Assembly: GCA_963774705.1 (NCBI GenBank)
Contig: CAVZFW010000002.1
Location: 283,236-347,235, forward strand
Origin: an uncultured delta proteobacterium
GTDB taxonomy: Bacteria; Desulfobacterota; Binatia; Binatales; Binataceae
Length of the DNA: 64,000 nucleotides
Direction of reading: 5' to 3'
In this document: positions 1 to 51,321 of the stretch, one piece after another
Numbering within the stretch: position 1 is the first letter of the stretch
Layout: each line of letters opens with the position of its first letter
Notes under the pieces: generated by a model
Database searches by the model: none
What the model was told of the DNA's origin: nothing
What the model saw: the letters and a program-made list of their open reading frames with translations, nothing else
Translations under genes and position numbers: made by a program

Positions 1-181
1 AGGAAATCGGACCGCACTGCGTTCCGCCGGTTATCGTGCCGTCGCTATTGTTGAGCACGCATGCGGTCAGACCGCCTGCATTCGAGTATTCGAAACTGCC
101 GCTGGCCTGTGCGAAGACGGTACCCCTCGCGGCAAATGTGACCAATACCGCGATCATAACTCCAATCAAAATCTTTCTCAT
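1..181 (-). CDS. Secreted hypothetical protein, N-terminal part (runs off window start)
   Basis: Manual translation MRKILIGVMIAVLVTFAARGTVFAQASGSFEYSNAGG...; GAGGGGAG RBS upstream; signal-peptide-like N-terminus. Confidence 0.7.
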   Translation of the reverse strand, partial: MRKILIGVMIAVLVTFAARGTVFAQASGSFEYSNAGGLTACVLNNSDGTITGGTQCGPIS

Positions 182-590
182 AGCCCACGCTCCCCTCTTT
201 GGTTGACAGTCAATTCTCCCTGCGTTTACGGACACTGGTTTCTCCATTCCCCTTTTCCCCTTTAATGAGTTGCCGTTGACCCCCGCTCGACCATTTTATT
301 GGCCTAGCGGTGACTTAGCAGCACGTTGCGTCTTTTACAACAAAGCATGATGTCATTTTTGTAATTTTTGGGTTAATTGGATGGAGACTGCCTGTTGATA
401 ACCCATCGTTGTCAATTATTGCTCGAATTGCGCATTTACTCTGAATTCAGACTGGCAGCAGCCCGTGGGTTCAGATAGGCACCAATCACAATGAGGACGG
501 TAAACCCCGCGCAACAGCCCTGGAACCGGTGCCCAGCCTTGTTACCCAGAGAACACTGTTTTAATGGAACGGAAATCGATCAGGCAGGAA

Positions 591-1190
591 TCAACGGGCG
601 CTCTCGTCTTCCCTCCCCGGATGGTCGGCGGCGCGCCACGGCTGAGACTTCAACTGCGATGCGATTCGCGCCGCCTCGTCGGGGGTTGGCGGCTGCACGA
701 TGATCTCGCCGACCATCGAGTCCACTTCGTGCGACATGCAGAAATACTTGTAAGTGCCTGGCGTAAAGAAGGTATGCCGATATTTCCCGCCCGGCATCAC
801 GTTGCCCGACGCGAAACTCGGCACACCAGTCGGCAACGCGACGTCGTCCGTTTTGGCGGCCTTCGCCGGATCGTCAACCACCGAATGACTGACCTGTCCA
901 GTGTTCAGCCATTCAACCGTCTGCCCGGCCCGTATCAGGATACTGTTGGGCTGGTACATCGGGTTGTCGTCGCTCATTTTGATTACGGCTGTGGGCCCCC
1001 GCACTTCAGCCTGAAGCGGCGGCACCTCCTCAGTGGCGGTCGCCCGTACTGAGGCGGGAGTATCAGGGGGATTGGCGTAGGCACGGCTCGCCCAAATCAT
1101 GGCGAGCAGCGGAATTGCGACAAGCACAATATTCCGCAAAGACGCGCTCACCCCGGGTCCCCTTGCGGAGTTGGTCGCGAATATCGGCAC
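591..1190 (-). CDS. Plastocyanin/azurin-family (cupredoxin) type-1 copper protein, exported
   Basis: HSV...YKYFCMSHEVDSMVGEI gives His/Cys/His/Met ligands; signal peptide; AGGAG RBS. Confidence 0.85.
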   Translation of the reverse strand: MPIFATNSARGPGVSASLRNIVLVAIPLLAMIWASRAYANPPDTPASVRATATEEVPPLQAEVRGPTAVIKMSDDNPMYQPNSILIRAGQTVEWLNTGQVSHSVVDDPAKAAKTDDVALPTGVPSFASGNVMPGGKYRHTFFTPGTYKYFCMSHEVDSMVGEIIVQPPTPDEAARIASQLKSQPWRAADHPGREDESAR

Positions 1191-1286
1191 AGCTCCTTTT
1201 AATATGCAAAATTAGAACCCCTTCTGCAATCACTTTCGCTGTGGCCAGTCAATCGGCGGCCGTTTCCTTGAGGTGCGATGGGGTGG

Positions 1287-2732
<1,446 letters not shown>

Positions 2733-2830
2733 TGCTCAATGATCCTCGCAATCATTTGCGACTGAATCGCTTCCGACACAATCGCTTTCGTCATCATCAT
2801 TTTAGCTGAAAAGCGAATTACAGGCGAAGA

Positions 2831-2846
2831 TGTTTCACGTGAAACA
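2831..2846. promoter_or_regulatory. parS: parS centromere site (ParB binding)
   Basis: Perfect 16-bp palindrome TGTTTCACGTGAAACA, the canonical bacterial parS consensus, intergenic. Confidence 0.9.
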
Positions 2847-3474
2847 TTTTCGCCATCAATTTGCGGTGAAGTATTTCACCGCTGAAATCCTGATGAAAGA
2901 TTTCACCGTTGACAACCAGACGGCAAGAGTCCTCCGTACGCGGGCCCATTACCATACTCAAATGCGCACCGGCGTTGGATCTTTCTGAATTTTGGTCACC
3001 CGAGGGTCGGCGCCGCACTGCGCGTCGGCGCCACGGTGGAGAGGCGTTCCAGAGGCGAGGATCTATTTCGTGCGCGATCTTCTTTTCATCGACGTATCCG
3101 TCATTAGTCAGTCGCGCGGGCCTAGACTAAATTTCGTAAGGCAGTCCGCGCGCAAGTCGTGAGTTCATTTCATTTGACTGTGGCGCTACTTCGCAAGAAT
3201 CGGTTCGGCAATAGTTACTGGAATAGCCAGTATATTCCAATAGTCACTCTGCTCAATAGCCATTGCTGTAATAGTCACTGAACCGGAGATGCCACCGTAG
3301 TCGCTACAGCTACAGAGTCGAAAACAGCTATGAGATTGCGAGTGCGCTTCGCGAGACGTTGCGCTCCGCGAAACACTTTCAGGCGCTGGCCGAGCCGGAC
3401 TACGCAATGCGCGACAGAGTACGATAGTATCGCCAGTGGATCGTGAGGCAATCGGTCGGGGAAGGGAGAACGGG

Positions 3475-8048: not shown

Positions 8049-8792
8049 TCAGGCTTTTTTCTTCGCCGCGACGCGCGGACGCCATTGATAGAAGGAACGC
8101 AGATCGACCGCGAAGGTCCACGCGTTGCGCGGCTGATCGATGACGTGGACGATCTCGCCGCAAATCGAATCGGTCGAGACGAAATGATCGGGATCCTCGT
8201 CGTGGGCGGCGTCCGTCACGCGCGGCAGCCCGACCGCGCCGTCGACGTCGAGGGCGACCGCATGGACGCCGCGATGCATGAACTCGTAGGCGACGGATTC
8301 GGCCAGTGCGCGTTGCGCAACCTTCGAGGCGTTGTAGGCGGCGTACTGCAAGGGGCCGCTGCGCGATTCGGAACCGAGCACGAAGATGATGGTGCCTGCG
8401 CCGCGCTCCGCCATCCCGGCGACCACCGCCTGGGTGCAGAAGAACGGCCCGTAGCAATTGACCTTCATCTGGAAATCGAAATCCTCTTCGCTGATTTCGA
8501 CAAACGGCTTGCGCAGGTAGGCGCCCGCGTTGTTGATCAGGACCGCGATCGGACCGAGTTCGCGCTCGACGGTGGCGACGGCGGCGGCCACTTGGTCGCG
8601 CTTCGACACGTCGGTCGGAGTGACGACCGCCTTGCCGCCAGCCTGGCGGATGAGCTCGGCGGTCTCGTCGAGTTGCGACTTGGTGCGCGCGATCAGTCCG
8701 CAGGCGTAACCCTCGCGCGCCATCCTGAGCGCGATATCGCGGCCGATGCCGCGACCGGCGCCCGTAATCAATGCGACCTTCGCTTCTGACAT
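8049..8792 (-). CDS. SDR family oxidoreductase
   Basis: TGAGRGIG, INNAG, YNASK. Confidence 0.92.
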   Translation of the reverse strand: MSEAKVALITGAGRGIGRDIALRMAREGYACGLIARTKSQLDETAELIRQAGGKAVVTPTDVSKRDQVAAAVATVERELGPIAVLINNAGAYLRKPFVEISEEDFDFQMKVNCYGPFFCTQAVVAGMAERGAGTIIFVLGSESRSGPLQYAAYNASKVAQRALAESVAYEFMHRGVHAVALDVDGAVGLPRVTDAAHDEDPDHFVSTDSICGEIVHVIDQPRNAWTFAVDLRSFYQWRPRVAAKKKA

Positions 8793-14896: not shown

Positions 14897-15046
14897 CAAC
14901 ACCTCTGCTTGTCCCGCGAGCGAAAACGGTAAGCGGTGCTCTCAACGCTTCTCCTTGTCCAGCGAGCGGATAGCGAGACCCGTGCTCTCAACACCTCTCC
15001 TTGTCGAGGGAGAGGTCGCGTGAGCATCGCGAACGGGGGTGAGGGC
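14897..15046 (+). repeat. Solo GGGAGAGG-hairpin-GGTGAGGG repeat with triplicated outer end
   Basis: 58-bp element at 14989-15046; CAACACCTCTCCTTGTCC-like unit recurs at 14897, 14943, 14989 (46-bp period). Confidence 0.85.
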
Positions 15047-16123: not shown

Positions 16124-16181
16124 CAGCACCGCTCCTTGTCCAGGGAGAGGTCGCGTGAGCATCGCGAACGCGGGTGAGGGC
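16124..16181 (+). repeat. Second solo copy of the GGGAGAGG-hairpin-GGTGAGGG repeat
   Basis: 54/58 identical to 14989-15046. Confidence 0.9.
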
Positions 16182-45063: not shown

Positions 45064-45334
45064 GCCCACCACAGTTCCATAGTCCGCCAGCCCATTCGTT
45101 CGCCGAAGGTGCCTTCGCGCCCGGGATTCCGCCGGTACGCTGCCGGTGTCCACCACGCGCGATCGAGGTTTCGCGCAACCTTTTGCCGAAGTCGCCGCTC
45201 ATCACTTTGCTAGGTGCTCTCGTTCAGGTTCAAAACGAGCGGTCGGCCAAGTATCCTTGAGGCTAGCGGGCTTTGGCAGGCGATACTTTCGAGGTCATCG
45301 GCGCGAACCCGGATTTGCGTTAAGAGGCAGTATT

Positions 45335-46610
45335 ATGACCAGTGCGGACGAGGCCCTCCAAATCGTTCTCGATAACGTCGCTCCGCTCGGCGTCGAGCGC
45401 CTCTCGATTACCGCCGCGCTCGACCGAACGCTCGCCGAGGAAGTCCATTCGCCGCGCGACATTCCGGGCTTCGATAACTCCGCGATGGACGGCTACGCGG
45501 TGCGCGCCGCGGATGTCGCGGCGGCCAGCGAGGCCAATCCGGTGCGCCTCGAAGTGCTCGAGACCGTCGCCGCCGGCATGATGCCGTCGCGACAGGTCGC
45601 GGCCGGGACAGGCCGTTCGCACGATGACGGGAGCGCCGATCGCGGCGGGCGCCGACACGATCGTGCCGGTCGAGCGCACGCGCAGCGATGGTAATTTCGT
45701 CGAAGTGATGGCGATCGCCGAGGCGCGGCGCTTTCGTGCGCCCGCGCGGCGAGGATCTGCGCCGTGACGAACTCGTGATGAGCGCCGGCAAGACGCTCAG
45801 CCCGTCGGACCTCGGGATGCTGGCGGCGTTGAATCGGTCGATGGTCGATGTTTGGCGGCGTCCGCGAGTCGCGATCGTCGCGACCGGCGATGAACTGGTT
45901 GACGTCGATCAGATTCCGACCGGCGCGCAGATCGTGAACTCGAGCGCCTACGCGCTGGCCGGGTGCGATTCGCGAGGCCGGCGGCGAGCCGGTGATGCTC
46001 AAGGTGGCGCGCGATACGCCCGACGAAGTCCGCGCGCGCCTGGCGGAGGCGCTCGCCTTCGACGTCGTGCTCTCGACCGGCGGCGTCTCGGTCGGCCAGT
46101 TCGACCACGTCAAAGGCGTGCTCGACGAACTCGGCTTGCGCCAGCTTTTCCATGGCGTCGCGCAAAAGCCGGGACGCCCGCTCAAGTTCGGCACCATCGG
46201 CGGCCGGCCGATCTTCGGCCTGCCCGGGAAATCCGGTCTCGACGATGGTTTGCTTCTACCTTTACGTCCGGCCCGCGCTGCGGCGGATGAGTGGGGCGAC
46301 TGAGGCCGGACTGCCGCGGGTAACAGTCCGATGCGCGACCGAAATCCGTATCGCCGCGAATCTGACCGAATTTGTGCGGGTGCGCCTGGAGCGCCGCGAT
46401 GGGGAGGTTTACGCGACTCCCACCGGCTACCAGGGCTCGGGAGTGCTAAGTTCGCTCTCGCGCGCCGATGCGCTGCTGATCGGGCCGGCGGCCGTGAGCA
46501 TGTCTGAAGGCGGGCGATCAGGCGACGGTGCTGCTGCTGGTGCCCGGGCGCGGGCGTCGACTGCACGACGACTCTTCGAGGGGCGGCCGCCTCGACGCCA
46601 GATGAATTGA
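45335..46610 (+). CDS. moeA: Molybdopterin molybdenumtransferase (frameshifted)
   Basis: FDNSAMDGYAVR, MTGAP, VAIVATGDEL, STGGVSVG, KPGRP, PGNPVS, QGSG. Confidence 0.92.
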
Positions 46611-46806
46611 ATCACCAGCGTCAGGACCGCGCCGAAGACCATCGAGGAGATCACGATGGTGCTGACCTTGACGATTGGGCTGCAGCAATCCGGGAATTAT
46701 GTGGACGATGACGATTTGCTCGAGATTGCTGCCGATGACGTAGCCCAGCCACAAGATCAAAATCGCGGCCGCCCAGAATTTCGGTTGCTTCCAGAACTCG
46801 AGTCAT
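46518..46806 (-). CDS. Small 2-TM membrane protein, LapA-like (frameshifted)
   Basis: GGAGG RBS; FWAAAILILWLGYVIGSNLEQIV...IVISSMVFGAVLTLVIQFIWRR; end uncertain. Confidence 0.5.
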
Positions 46807-46904
46807 CGCGATCCCTCCGCAAATGCAATCCCTGAAAGCTTGGATTGTCGCCTCGCCAATGTCAACGTGAACCGCGATGCGACTTGGATTAAAGCAGGCG
46901 GTCG

Positions 46905-47388
46905 ATGCGATTTAGAGTAGGGCAGGGCTTCGATTTCCATCCGCTGGAAGCCGGCCGCAAGCTGGTATTGGGCGGCGTCGAGATCGCGCATACCGCAGGA
47001 CTGCGCGGCCATTCGGATGCCGACGTCGCGGCTCATGCACTGGCCAACGCGATTCTCGGAGCGCTTGGGATTAGGCGACCTCGGACAGCATTTTCCCGAC
47101 AACGATCCGCACTACAAGAACGCCGATAGCATCACGTTGCTGGAGACCGTGTGGCAGCGGGCGACCGACCTTGGATGGTCGCTGGTCAACGCCGACGTGA
47201 CTATCTTCGCGGCGCAGCCGAAGCTGGCGCCGCATCTGCCGGCGATGCGCGCGCGACTCGCGCGGCAGCGCTCGGCAAGACCGCAGACGCTGGTCAACGT
47301 CAAGGCGTCGAATCCCGAGGGCCTCGGCGCGCTGGGGCGCGGCGAAGGGATGGCCGCCGCCGCCATCGTGATGCTACAGGCGAATTGA
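46905..47388 (+). CDS. ispF: 2-C-methyl-D-erythritol 2,4-cyclodiphosphate synthase (frameshifted)
   Basis: [35 protein letters not shown]. Confidence 0.95.
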
Positions 47389-47500
47389 TTGCCGCGTCCG
47401 CGGACGACAAAAGTTCAGTCGTGCGGTCTTCTGGCGACCCGCACTCGGCGGTCGAACTTCACCAGAATCACTCCCGCTGACGGCCGCCCGCGAGCATTGG

Positions 47501-48055
47501 CCAGGGAGAGGTCGGCGAATGCGTGCCGCGCACGCATTTGCTGGGTGAGGCAGCCTGCCGGGTGAGGGTAGTCGTATGGCTCGTGCAGTCGATCCACGCT
47601 GGATTCCGCACGTTCGAGCGCGCCAACTACGGCGCGATGAAACCGAGGCCGAAGCCAAGTTATGGGCCCGTCTGCGCAATGCGGGCCTCAACGGCGCGAA
47701 ATTCCGGCGGCAATTTCCGATTGGGGAATTCATCGCTGACTTCTGCTGTTCGAAGCGCCGACTCGTGATCGAACTCGACGGTGGTCAGCACGCCGAACAA
47801 GTGCAGCGGGATGAATGGCGGAGCGCTCTGTTGGCTCAGCACGGATATCGGGTGGTGAGATTCTGGAACGAGGAGATCATCGACAACCTGGATGGAGTAT
47901 TGGAGCGGACACTGGAGGAACTAAAGAGGGGCGTGCGCTAAGGCGAGAGTGCCTCACTCGGCCGAGTAGATGAGCAATGCGAGGCTGCCCTCACCCGGCT
48001 TCAGCGAACTGAAGTTCGCCTCAGCCGACCTCTCCCTGGACAAGGAGAGGTGTTG
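47501..48055. mobile_element. Putative DUF559-nuclease element bounded by inverted structured repeats
   Basis: Left arm CCAGGGAGAGGTCGGC-hairpin-GGGTGAGG(G) 47501-47568; right arm inverted 47987-48055; solo copies at 14989 and 16124. Confidence 0.6.
47576..47941 (+). CDS. DUF559 / Vsr-like endonuclease
   Basis: ARQLRRDETEAEAKLW, KFRRQFPIGEFIADF, LVIELDGGQH, GYRVVRFWN. Confidence 0.92.
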   Translation: MARAVDPRWIPHVRARQLRRDETEAEAKLWARLRNAGLNGAKFRRQFPIGEFIADFCCSKRRLVIELDGGQHAEQVQRDEWRSALLAQHGYRVVRFWNEEIIDNLDGVLERTLEELKRGVR

Positions 48056-48190
48056 GGGAGGGAATGTCGGCGGACGTGAAGGTTGGGTGTTGGGAAGGAG
48101 CATCGGGGAACGTGACCGTGGGTGTTGGCAAGGAAGTTTGGCGGACGTGAAGGGTTGGGTCTTTGGAAGAGACTTCGGCGAACGGCGTGG
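48049..48190. repeat. Degenerate 35/37-bp tandem repeat (ABAB)
   Basis: Units starting GGTGTTGG at 48049, 48086, 48121 and GGTCTTTGG at 48158. Confidence 0.7.
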
Positions 48191-48306
48191 AGGCGGCTCA
48201 ATGAACAGGAAGGTTTTAACCGCCGGGGCGCTTGGCCATGACGAGATGCTACTCGACGCCGAAGGCGAAGTATCGGGCGCGAGGCTGCATTCCGCAAGCG
48301 TCACCA

Positions 48307-48556
48307 AATTCAATTGGAAAGCGCCGATGTCACATTTGCAGGTGAGTCGTCGTACTACGTTCCGCACGCGTTACGAACTTAACTGGAAAGTGCCGATATC
48401 ACATTTGCCGGTGAGTCGTCGTACTGCGTTCCGCAGGCGTTACAAACTCGACTGGAAGGCCACGATGTCACATTTGCAGGTGAGTCGTCGTACTACGTTC
48501 CGCACGCGTTACGAACTTAACTGGAAAGCGCCGATATCACATTCGCAGGTGAGTCG
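48307..48556. repeat. 69-bp tandem repeat, 3.6 copies
   Basis: Units at 48307, 48376, 48445, 48514 (partial); core GATRTCACATTYGCMGGTGAGTCG. Confidence 0.95.
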
Positions 48557-49395: not shown

Positions 49396-51321
49396 ATGGG
49401 TACATCGCGGTCGAGTAACAGATTGAAATTGCTTCGGAGGGTGGCAGGCCTATGCAGTGCGTTAGCATTGATTATGAGCCTGGCCACGAATTCGAATGCA
49501 CAGGTAGTGTTTTCCAAGGTACTGAACAATAAGGTTTCCGATCCGCTCGGCGGATTTCTCAATGCCGACCCGAATACACCAATCGCGATCGACGGCAGCG
49601 GTATCGCGTTTCGCAGCCTGGGAGTGGCCGCGCCGGAAATGTGGTCGAGCGATCTGGGCGGGTCGAGCCTGGTCAATCTGGCGAATCGAACGTCGCTATT
49701 ACCCGGCCTGCTGCATATCGGCAACCTGTCGAATATCGATCAGGCAGCGCCGATCGCGCGTAACGGGGTGGTGCTTTTCACCGCCGCGGACCATTCGTGC
49801 GGGACGAAGCTGCTGGGCAATTGCGGCGGTTTGTGGACCACGCCGCTTGGCGCAGCGACTTACTCCCTGATCGCGAGCGGTTCGATTCTGGATCCGAGTC
49901 TGTTGCTGACCAGTTTCTATTTTGGCAGCGACGGCTCCACGTACAATTTCGATCTCGACGACGTCGCGTCCAAGGCGGTCTTTGAAGCCGACAGTGCGTT
50001 GTTGGGGCTGCTGGGCGCCAGCCACGGAATTTACCTCGAAAATCTCAACGGCACCGGGCTCACGACCATCGCCGATAACGCAGACGGCTTTATCGTGCAT
50101 CCGGGCTCGGGCGATCCAATTATCAATTTCGAGGATCCGGCCCTATCGAACAGCACGACGGCATTTGTTGGCCGGGCGGCGGATAACCTGAAGCAGGGCC
50201 TCTACACCTTCCCGGCTACGACCATTGTGCTGGGCGACGGATCGCCGCCGTTCAGTGAAATTCTGAGTTCAGTCGGGAAACTGCCGGGCGATCCCCACGG
50301 CGGTGACAATTTTATAAACTTCCTGTCACCCTCGCTTCAACTGGTCGGCAATACCCTCGCGTTCGTCGCCACTAACGCGATTTCAAACGCGACTTATGCC
50401 GGAGTTTTCGTGGTTGATACCGGTACGGGCGTCATCAAGAAGATCATCTCGAACGCGGATACTCTGCCGGGCATGGGAACGCTGTTGCCGAATTTCACTT
50501 ATGCAATCGACAGCCTTGGAGATATTGTTTTCAAAGCTACCGACGGTTCGCATGCCGGGTATTTCCTCGCCAAGATCGTCGGCGGAACCGTGCAAATTGC
50601 TCAAATTGTGGTTAGCGGGCAGCCGATCACAGTGGCCGGCAGTACGGTAACGCCCCTTCTCACGGACATCGTCGATCTCGGCAAATTCGCCATCAGCGAT
50701 TCCCATTTTGTCTTCGTGATAGCGAGCAATCTGATCGAAGTCGTATTGGCTGACCTGACGAACGCAACACCGATTCCGACGCCGACACCTACTCCAACGC
50801 CGACGCCTACTCCGACATCGACGCCGACGACCACTCCAACGGGAACGCCGACACCGACGCCGACCGGTACTCCCACGGGGACGCCGACGCCGACTCCTAC
50901 TGGAACGCCAACGCCGACGCCGACCGGTACCCCGACGCCGACGCCCACTCCGAAACCAACGCCGACCCCGACGCCAAAGCCGGTAGCGGCGAATATTGGA
51001 GCGAAGCCGGGGATCATCTTCTTCGGCAAGGGTCCAATCGGTGCGACGAGCCTGCCGCGGAAGGTCACGCTGAAGAACCTTTCATCACGGAAGTTTCCGG
51101 TGCCGATTACGATTCAGTCGGTGGGCATCCGGGGGCCCTTCGCGATCTTCTCCGATAGTTGCAGCGGACACGTGCTCAACACTTCGGGCGCGAAATGCAC
51201 CATCTCGGTGATCTACAAGCCCGACGCCCTCGGTCCGCAGGGGGGTACGGTGACTGTGATTCACAACGCACGTCGTTCGCCGCATAGCGTGCGAGTGCAG
51301 GGACGCGGAATGACGCCGTAA
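49396..51321 (+). CDS. Secreted surface protein: beta-rich domain, PT-rich linker, C-terminal Ig-like (ASH/choice-of-anchor D-like) domain
   Basis: AAAGGAGG RBS, signal peptide, (PT)n linker, [27 protein letters not shown]. Confidence 0.85.
50768..50982 (+). repeat. Coding Pro-Thr linker repeat
   Basis: [10 protein letters not shown]...TPTGTP...[10 protein letters not shown] with synonymous codon variation. Confidence 0.9.

Follow-up and report, generated by a model that had tools for sequence, protein, structure and literature searches.

A YcjD-type DUF559 nuclease gene in this window (the whole stretch of 64,000 nucleotides that was analysed) lies embedded in repeat units of the BoxC / PIT / triplex-motif family, and we estimate at roughly 55% the probability that gene and repeat are functional partners in the manner of RAYT transposases and their REP repeats. 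To our knowledge, these repeats have been known since the 1990s, in hundreds of species, with no function, origin or protein assigned to them, and DUF559 is a very large family for which hardly any role has been assigned. We found no paper tying DUF559 to the repeats in the full-text literature outside subscription journals. Statistically, the partnership of the YcjD-type genes with the repeat is well supported, and it does not appear to have been described before.

The DUF559 gene (47576-47941, forward strand; YcjD-type, with a Vsr-like PD-(D/E)XK nuclease domain) encodes 121 amino acids and is located, as an earlier note on this DNA had proposed, between inverted structured repeats. The left arm (47501-47571, forward strand) begins at 47501 with the purine arm of a first hairpin and continues with a second hairpin (47515-47541; stems 47515-47526/47530-47541), a first block GGGTGAGG (47543-47550) and a second block GGGTGAGGG (47560-47568). 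The right arm (47985-48051, reverse strand) is a complete unit, made up of a CCCTCACCC block (47988-47996), a second hairpin (47996-48027; stems 47996-48010/48013-48027) and the full first hairpin (48028-48051). The pyrimidine arm, which forms the 5' half of the first hairpin, is thus present in the right arm and absent from the left. A degenerate inner C-rich block resembling an inverted GGGTGAGG (47950-47962, reverse strand) lies 9 nt past the stop codon. The outer 16-nt block CCAGGGAGAGGTCGGC was found without mismatch at 47501-47516 (forward) and 48024-48039 (reverse); with up to 3 mismatches it has 5 matches in the window against 0.88 expected, a number reached in 1 of 100 shuffles. The GGGTGAGGG block is likewise inverted, between 47557-47571 and 47985-47999 (15 nt, 93%). 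The internal hairpins of the two arms are unrelated in sequence and share a common architecture, which confirms another observation of the note, and the right arm folds into two adjoining hairpins with the G block unpaired (z = -3.26). In each unit, a loop separates the pyrimidine arm (CCTCTCC) from the purine arm (GGAGAGG); a second hairpin, variable in this lineage, comes next and the G-rich third block GGGTGAGGG last. In the left arm this third block extends to 47568, with 7 nt between it and the ATG, as had been described; as the note also suggested for the arm, the third block beside the start codon probably doubles as the ribosome-binding site.

The gene matches DUF559 and no other family, no transposase was found at the locus, and the neighbouring genes are MoeA, IspF and open reading frames without a Pfam match, in agreement with the earlier statement that no DDE, HUH or recombinase gene is present. 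At the ends of the arms we saw no direct duplication of the kind used as the target-site criterion for insertion sequences and MITEs. Several other features of the surrounding DNA were recorded. Within 45146-47385, ispF is split over two frames (Pfam YgbB positions 1-68 in 46905-47126 and 52-154 in 47017-47385) and moeA is scattered across at least three reading frames. These splits are either assembly indel errors or pseudogenes, and if they are assembly errors, the source genome may be more complete than the estimated 65%. One related metagenome contig differs from the window by a 1-nt indel at 47063. Just 3' of the element there is a tandem repeat with a 69-nt period (48290-48556; 3.9 copies, 84% matches) whose translation matched no Pfam family, and a 207-nt (3 x 69) step back at this repeat in one metagenome contig suggests that its copy number is variable. 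An open reading frame of 641 amino acids at 49396-51318 contains a long Pro/Thr-rich linker and has no Pfam match.

The 121-aa protein aligns with Pfam DUF559 (PF04480) over residues 14-116 (E = 2e-40; 137.5 bits against a cut-off of 20.6). When it was aligned with its relatives (24 sequences in all), the residues that never vary included D55, E66, D68, H72 and D79, and the protein of the window keeps all of them; by analogy with the Vsr fold, we infer a catalytic role for this D..E.D...H..D core. The nearest solved relative is the endonuclease-like protein of Neisseria gonorrhoeae (PDB 3HRL; E = 1.5e-26, residues 23-116), a structural-genomics entry with no function reported. Two sampled Neisseria DUF559 loci, from N. 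oralis (L122) and an uncultured Neisseria sp. (L131), resemble the locus of the window in being flanked by a variant of the repeat. A single short DUF559 gene was found in the source genome, together with two weak matches inside long open reading frames. In an RNA-library run, two exact 151-nt contigs were found, both within the DUF559 open reading frame only; this is a weak hint that the gene is transcribed. Cover in an RNA library cannot prove transcription.

A search of the source genome (4.03 Mb, 17 contigs) revealed 15 copies of the composite repeat, comprising the two arms, one variant and 12 solo copies whose cores, about 58 nt long, are nearly identical. Units are always intergenic. 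The two solo copies that had been placed at 14989 and 16124 were recovered at 14991-15046 and 16126-16181, both on the forward strand. The second hairpin of the 12 solos is unlike that of either arm and resembles the arms that flank DUF559 genes at loci L005 and L113, in other genomes. Because of this difference, the gene copy of the window is not obviously the direct parent of the solos, and the copy at 47576 may not be their direct source.

The repeat, which the note had called REP/CIR-like, is neither a new family nor a REP-like novelty: it belongs to the BoxC / PIT (potential intrastrand triplex) / triplex-motif repeats, an already described family whose units consist of a pyrimidine arm, a purine arm and a G-rich third block, and here it has an extra hairpin. 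The block order is the same as that of the E. coli triplex motif (TMECO) and the core letters match (CCCTCTCCC / GGGAGAGGG / GGGTGAGGG), the three-block order being complete in the right arm and the solos. Both groups are multi-copy and intergenic, occur at times as inverted pairs and are tied to local instability. They differ in the variable second hairpin that in this lineage separates the third block from the purine arm, a linker of 19-31 nt with its own hairpin, where the ITxF search for the triplex motif allowed loops of 1-6 nt (PMC4666352). The same paper (Holder et al. 2015) describes these repeats in E. coli and in over 260 further bacteria. According to its text, a single strand of the E. 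coli motif forms an intrastrand triplex in vitro, formation in vivo being unsupported; the motif stalls polymerase in vitro; and the loci are unusually variable between E. coli strains. The survey reports no transposase, integrase or other mobility gene beside the motif, and the words endonuclease, ycjD and DUF have 0 occurrences in its main text (PMC4666352). The mirror rule expected of a triplex was followed at 8 of 8 positions in 72 of 112 units; the forward-read control is nearly as high (56 of 112), because the blocks are close to self-symmetric, so the rule does not discriminate as a test. A further match is the Rfam family whalefall-1 (RF01762), which aligns over its whole model with the right arm and both solos at 21.4, 19.1 and 18.7 bits, under the gathering score of 37. 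Its architecture is the same, with a first hairpin (CUCUCC..GGAGAG) and a variable second hairpin followed by GGGUGAGG. Whalefall-1 has been described as a non-coding RNA from whale-fall metagenomes only (Weinberg et al. 2010, PMC2864571), and the text available of that paper gives no gene association for it.

We compared the flanks of 104 DUF559 loci, comprising 24 from relatives of the source genome and the 80 best of 594 confirmed species-genome loci, the hosts of these 80 being Binatia, Alpha-, Beta- and Gammaproteobacteria, Dehalococcoidia, Rokubacteria, Nitrospira, Melainabacteria, Neisseria and Serratia. With an exact pyrimidine/purine stem of at least 7 bp as the hairpin criterion, a hairpin was present in 74/100 upstream flanks and a complete unit, with its G block in + orientation, in 64/100; downstream, the figures were 56/94 for the hairpin and 38/94 for a complete unit in inverted orientation. 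For control windows taken from the same loci at a distance of 400 nt or more, the counts were 7/532 for a hairpin and 6/532 for a complete unit in either orientation. The refuting condition set in the note, that repeats flank DUF559 genes no more often than other genes, clearly fails. As for the inverted layout, the unit directly upstream of the start is the constant part, and the inverted copy at the stop is found at about half of the loci. With a relaxed detector, 91 of 105 loci showed a complete unit upstream, downstream or both, and 41 showed one in each flank. In 57/97 loci the downstream unit starts between -40 and +15 nt of the end of the stop codon, the -40 values being edge effects of a loose detector. 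The median identity between the two arms of one locus was 0.78 (n = 41), compared to 0.61 across loci of the same motif type (n = 658). Among viral contigs, a hairpin lies within 400 nt of 7/8 close homologues (at least 43% identity) and of 0/72 distant Vsr-like relatives, which indicates that the link with the repeat is specific to the YcjD-type subfamily.

The motif itself occurs in several variants (GGGAGAGG/GGGTGAGGG, GGGAGGGG/GGGGAGGG, GGGGGAGG/GGAGGGGG and GGGGAAGG/GGATGGGGG, plus a ACTCCCCC type), and both arms are of the same type in 38 of the 43 loci where both could be typed. On a nuclease tree built with FastTree from 103 proteins, which is poorly resolved, motif type changes 21 times compared to 26-32 in 300 label shuffles, a difference that is confounded by host taxonomy. 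One clade, with 99% support, spans three phyla and unites a relative of the source genome with loci of Arenicellales and Chloroflexota, all with the rare ACTCCCCC type. The linker before the G block was short in 83 of 131 units and long in 48. Perfect stems of at least 5 bp were found in 27/48 long linkers against 125/960 shuffles, and the long linkers comprise 45 distinct sequences, indicating that the second hairpin is conserved as a structure and not as a sequence. One genome (G043) has a single DUF559 gene, of the ACTCCCCC type, beside 59 standard and 28 GGGGGAGGG-type units, and another (G046) has 15 GGGGGAGGG-type units and no DUF559 gene; for these second-motif counts the reversed-pattern control is identical to the pattern and hence gives no background. 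A genome with a single DUF559 gene can thus contain two or three motif variants in abundance, and counts of this kind argue against a strict rule of one nuclease for one motif.

To compare whole genomes, repeats were counted with an exact pattern (purine arm, 0-30 nt, GGTGAGGG) and DUF559 was scored at E ≤ 1e-15. Among 61 Binatia relatives of the source genome, DUF559 was present in 16/17 genomes with at least 10 repeats and in 5/44 with fewer (Fisher p = 1.5e-9), the reversed-pattern control giving 0-4 matches per genome in this set. Similar results were obtained for 51 Dehalococcoidia related to one genome (21/31 against 3/20; p = 4e-4) and for 61 Enterobacterales related to Serratia fonticola (11/13 against 3/48; p = 6e-8). 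The p-values overstate the support, because the genomes within each set are related. Exceptions run both ways: repeat-rich genomes without a DUF559 match include G054 (32 repeats), G079, G094 and G108 (157, 245 and 64) and G120 and G121 (35 and 92). The Binatia set includes an unpublished genome (G028), with 3 repeats and no DUF559. In the Dehalococcoidia and Enterobacterales sets, most genomes have one DUF559 copy and up to 405 repeats. Copy number ranges from 0 to 15 in the Binatia set, where pseudogene fragments also occur, and inside one genus the gene is patchy, being present in 5/12 genomes.

The K-12 gene ycjD is itself a DUF559 gene; Serratia DUF559 DNA used as a query had no match in E. 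coli genomes. Its 3' end lies inside a degenerate unit, and a complete BoxC follows about 170 nt on, just before fabI; read in this way, the K-12 locus shows the same layout as that of the window, and it was this locus that identified the repeat as BoxC / PIT / triplex motif (TMECO). The sapF-ycjD-fabI arrangement is present in 3,343 of 5,426 complete E. coli genomes. Of the others, most of those sampled begin to match the query about 30 nt beyond BoxC, and in an ST131 genome that we examined the eef efflux operon occupies the ycjD site, with the breakpoint about 30 nt past BoxC. According to the published account (PMC12817139), ycjD replaces the eef operon in phylogroups A, B1 and C plus ST69 and ST182, with at least two independent losses of eef inferred. 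Four chromosomes with ycjD had 22, 30, 33 and 19 units, K-12 having one ycjD and 22 units, whereas six without ycjD at the sapF-fabI site had 4, 4, 3, 20, 17 and 17. Those with 17-20 units were SCU-109, KY1497 and O157:H7 F3113. A PF04480 search of three of these six chromosomes (the ST131 strain, SCU-109 and 95-3322) gave no match. The ycjD-bearing ECO_2_R, at 19 units, has no more than SCU-109 and KY1497, two ycjD-less strains with the same FabI protein accession; the ycjD of ECO_2_R is the 12-nt-longer form attributed to ST69 and ST182 (PMC12817139). The contrast between gene and unit number within E. coli is therefore mixed.

Structural variability around the repeat was observed in several places. 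The number of BoxC-type units varies about tenfold in E. coli, from 3-4 (the ST131 strain, 95-3322 and NCTC9022) to 30-33 (two chromosomes with ycjD). In one Enterobacterales genome (G127; loci L145-L160), inverted pairs of units enclose tandem arrays of repeats of about 100-125 nt, every one of which opens with a copy of the first hairpin. The window has parallels on a small scale: an array with a 35-nt period (48067-48160, 2.6 copies) abuts the first-hairpin side of the right arm, and tandem partial pyrimidine arms at about 14900-14990 precede the solo unit at 14991. These arrays abutting the first-hairpin side have the appearance of minisatellites that grew from the repeat as a seed. Beside a K-12 unit (L143, about 8300-8420), part of the ycjD 3' end is present as a duplicate, and a DUF559 3'-end partial duplicate follows the stop codon in L164, a locus unrelated to K-12. 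Both hint that end points of recombination lie within the gene's 3' end.

Empty sites were sought in two ways, and none was found. The DNA 3' of ispF in 11 genomes of the same genus is unrelated to that of the window, and this lack of synteny precludes an empty-site comparison there. Contigs from sequencing runs, which cover small shares of the stretch, showed no joint across the element, the sole joint found being at the 69-nt tandem repeat.

RAYTs are HUH tyrosine transposases paired with REP / REPIN repeats and flanked by inverted copies of them. The present case resembles the REP/RAYT system in that the nuclease gene, usually present once per genome, is flanked by a hairpin repeat in inverted copies which is also scattered over the genome, gene and repeat co-occur in genomes, and the repeats also form inverted doublets. 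It differs in that a Vsr-like hydrolase of the PD-(D/E)XK type, about 120 aa long, is encoded in place of an HUH (Y1) transposase, that the repeat has a third, triplex-type block, and that the partnership is read from sequence. We propose that a Vsr-like hydrolytic nuclease takes the place of the HUH transposase. It would recognise the folded unit, as a hairpin or as an intrastrand triplex of single-stranded DNA, and would nick or cut there. Repair, recombination or slippage at the break could then copy, homogenise or rearrange units, and break repair could occasionally copy or rearrange the DUF559 gene too. A hydrolytic nuclease of about 120 aa cannot carry out strand transfer on its own. Both the action of the nuclease on the unit and the spread of the repeat by the nuclease are what we infer by analogy with RAYT. 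Several results, among them the repeat-rich genomes without DUF559 and the E. coli chromosomes that have 17-20 units and no ycjD, cut against a simple dependence of the repeat on the gene.

The main rival to this partnership reverses the dependence. DUF559 could be a selfish homing-type gene for which existing triplex-motif repeats, spread by other means, are cleavage or landing sites, and which is kept only where targets are plentiful. The same repeat-rich genomes and E. coli chromosomes speak for such a gene, since in them the repeats outlast it, as do the 0 to 15 copies among relatives with their fragments, the presence of the E. coli gene in place of an operon that was lost at least twice independently (PMC12817139), and the 3'-end duplicates beside units in E. 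coli and L164. There is also a precedent in the I-Bth0305I-type homing endonuclease (PDB 3R3P) of a group I intron, which is listed in the Vsr/DUF559 clade (PMC3424549). Enzymes of that type are encoded by selfish, mobile genes and share the Vsr-like catalytic core, but they are found inside introns or inteins and have extra DNA-binding regions, whereas the gene of the window is stand-alone and framed by repeats. What makes this explanation unlikely is that most genomes in two of the three lineages have one copy beside up to 405 repeats, which is more RAYT-like than expected from a spreading homing gene. In addition, the arms are whole inverted units and not the halves of a split target, and no empty/filled allele pair was seen at the locus, the E. 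coli site carrying either ycjD or the eef operon.

Roles in host maintenance or in very-short-patch repair are less likely. As a maintenance factor, DUF559 would process the hairpins or triplexes of the repeat during replication and regulate itself through the leader unit, mobilising neither gene nor repeats. The co-occurrence of gene and repeat, the usually single copy, a unit directly 5' of the start in 64-74 of 100 loci, and the instability of E. coli repeat loci together with the stalling of polymerase in vitro (PMC4666352) would all be compatible with this role. We nevertheless consider it quite improbable, as the gene is patchy within one genus, pseudogene fragments and multi-copy genomes exist, a nuclease clade spread over several phyla retains the same rare motif, and the stop codon of the gene lies in or beside an inverted unit. 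An ordinary very-short-patch repair nuclease serving a cytosine methyltransferase, with the repeats as chance neighbours, is suggested by the Vsr-like fold and by Caulobacter VsrA, a protein with a DUF559 domain that is functionally tied to the ScmA methyltransferase (PMC12907096). Vsr and VsrA share the fold superfamily with the protein studied here, but their links are with cytosine methyltransferases and T:G mismatches, whereas the link here is with a structured repeat, and no match to the C5 cytosine methyltransferase family PF00145 was found in the source genome, estimated to be 65% complete. Repair of this kind would also leave the flanking units and the genome-level correlation unexplained, and the repeat is absent from the distant Vsr-like relatives (0/72), which makes this role very unlikely. 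Least credible of all is an association that is merely regulatory or due to chance, with the units acting as ribosome-binding site and terminator of a small gene in repeat-rich intergenic DNA: the G block 7 nt from the ATG and the intergenic position of all units (also reported in PMC4666352) would fit, but the hairpin was found in just 7/532 control windows of the same loci, gene and repeat are correlated at the genome level in three lineages, the earlier work detected no promoter or terminator activity for triplex-motif elements (PMC4666352), and a consensus scan of 47300-48300 revealed neither a promoter nor a terminator.

The partnership of DUF559 with the repeat could extend well beyond this locus. 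We suggest tentatively, at somewhat less than even odds, that YcjD-type DUF559 proteins are the missing trans-acting partner of BoxC / PIT repeats across bacteria, forming a second repeat-nuclease system that is independent of HUH enzymes and parallel to REP/RAYT, in which a tiny Vsr-like enzyme would recognise hairpin-plus-third-strand DNA and its cuts would drive spread, homogenisation and local instability. The link provides a testable hypothesis both for DUF559 and for the repeats, and E. coli K-12, with one ycjD and 22 units, is an organism in which it can be addressed. Were it true, it would account for the instability that has been described at BoxC loci and would add a nuclease fold, and a DNA structure beyond the simple hairpin, to the few partnerships between repeats and enzymes in bacteria.
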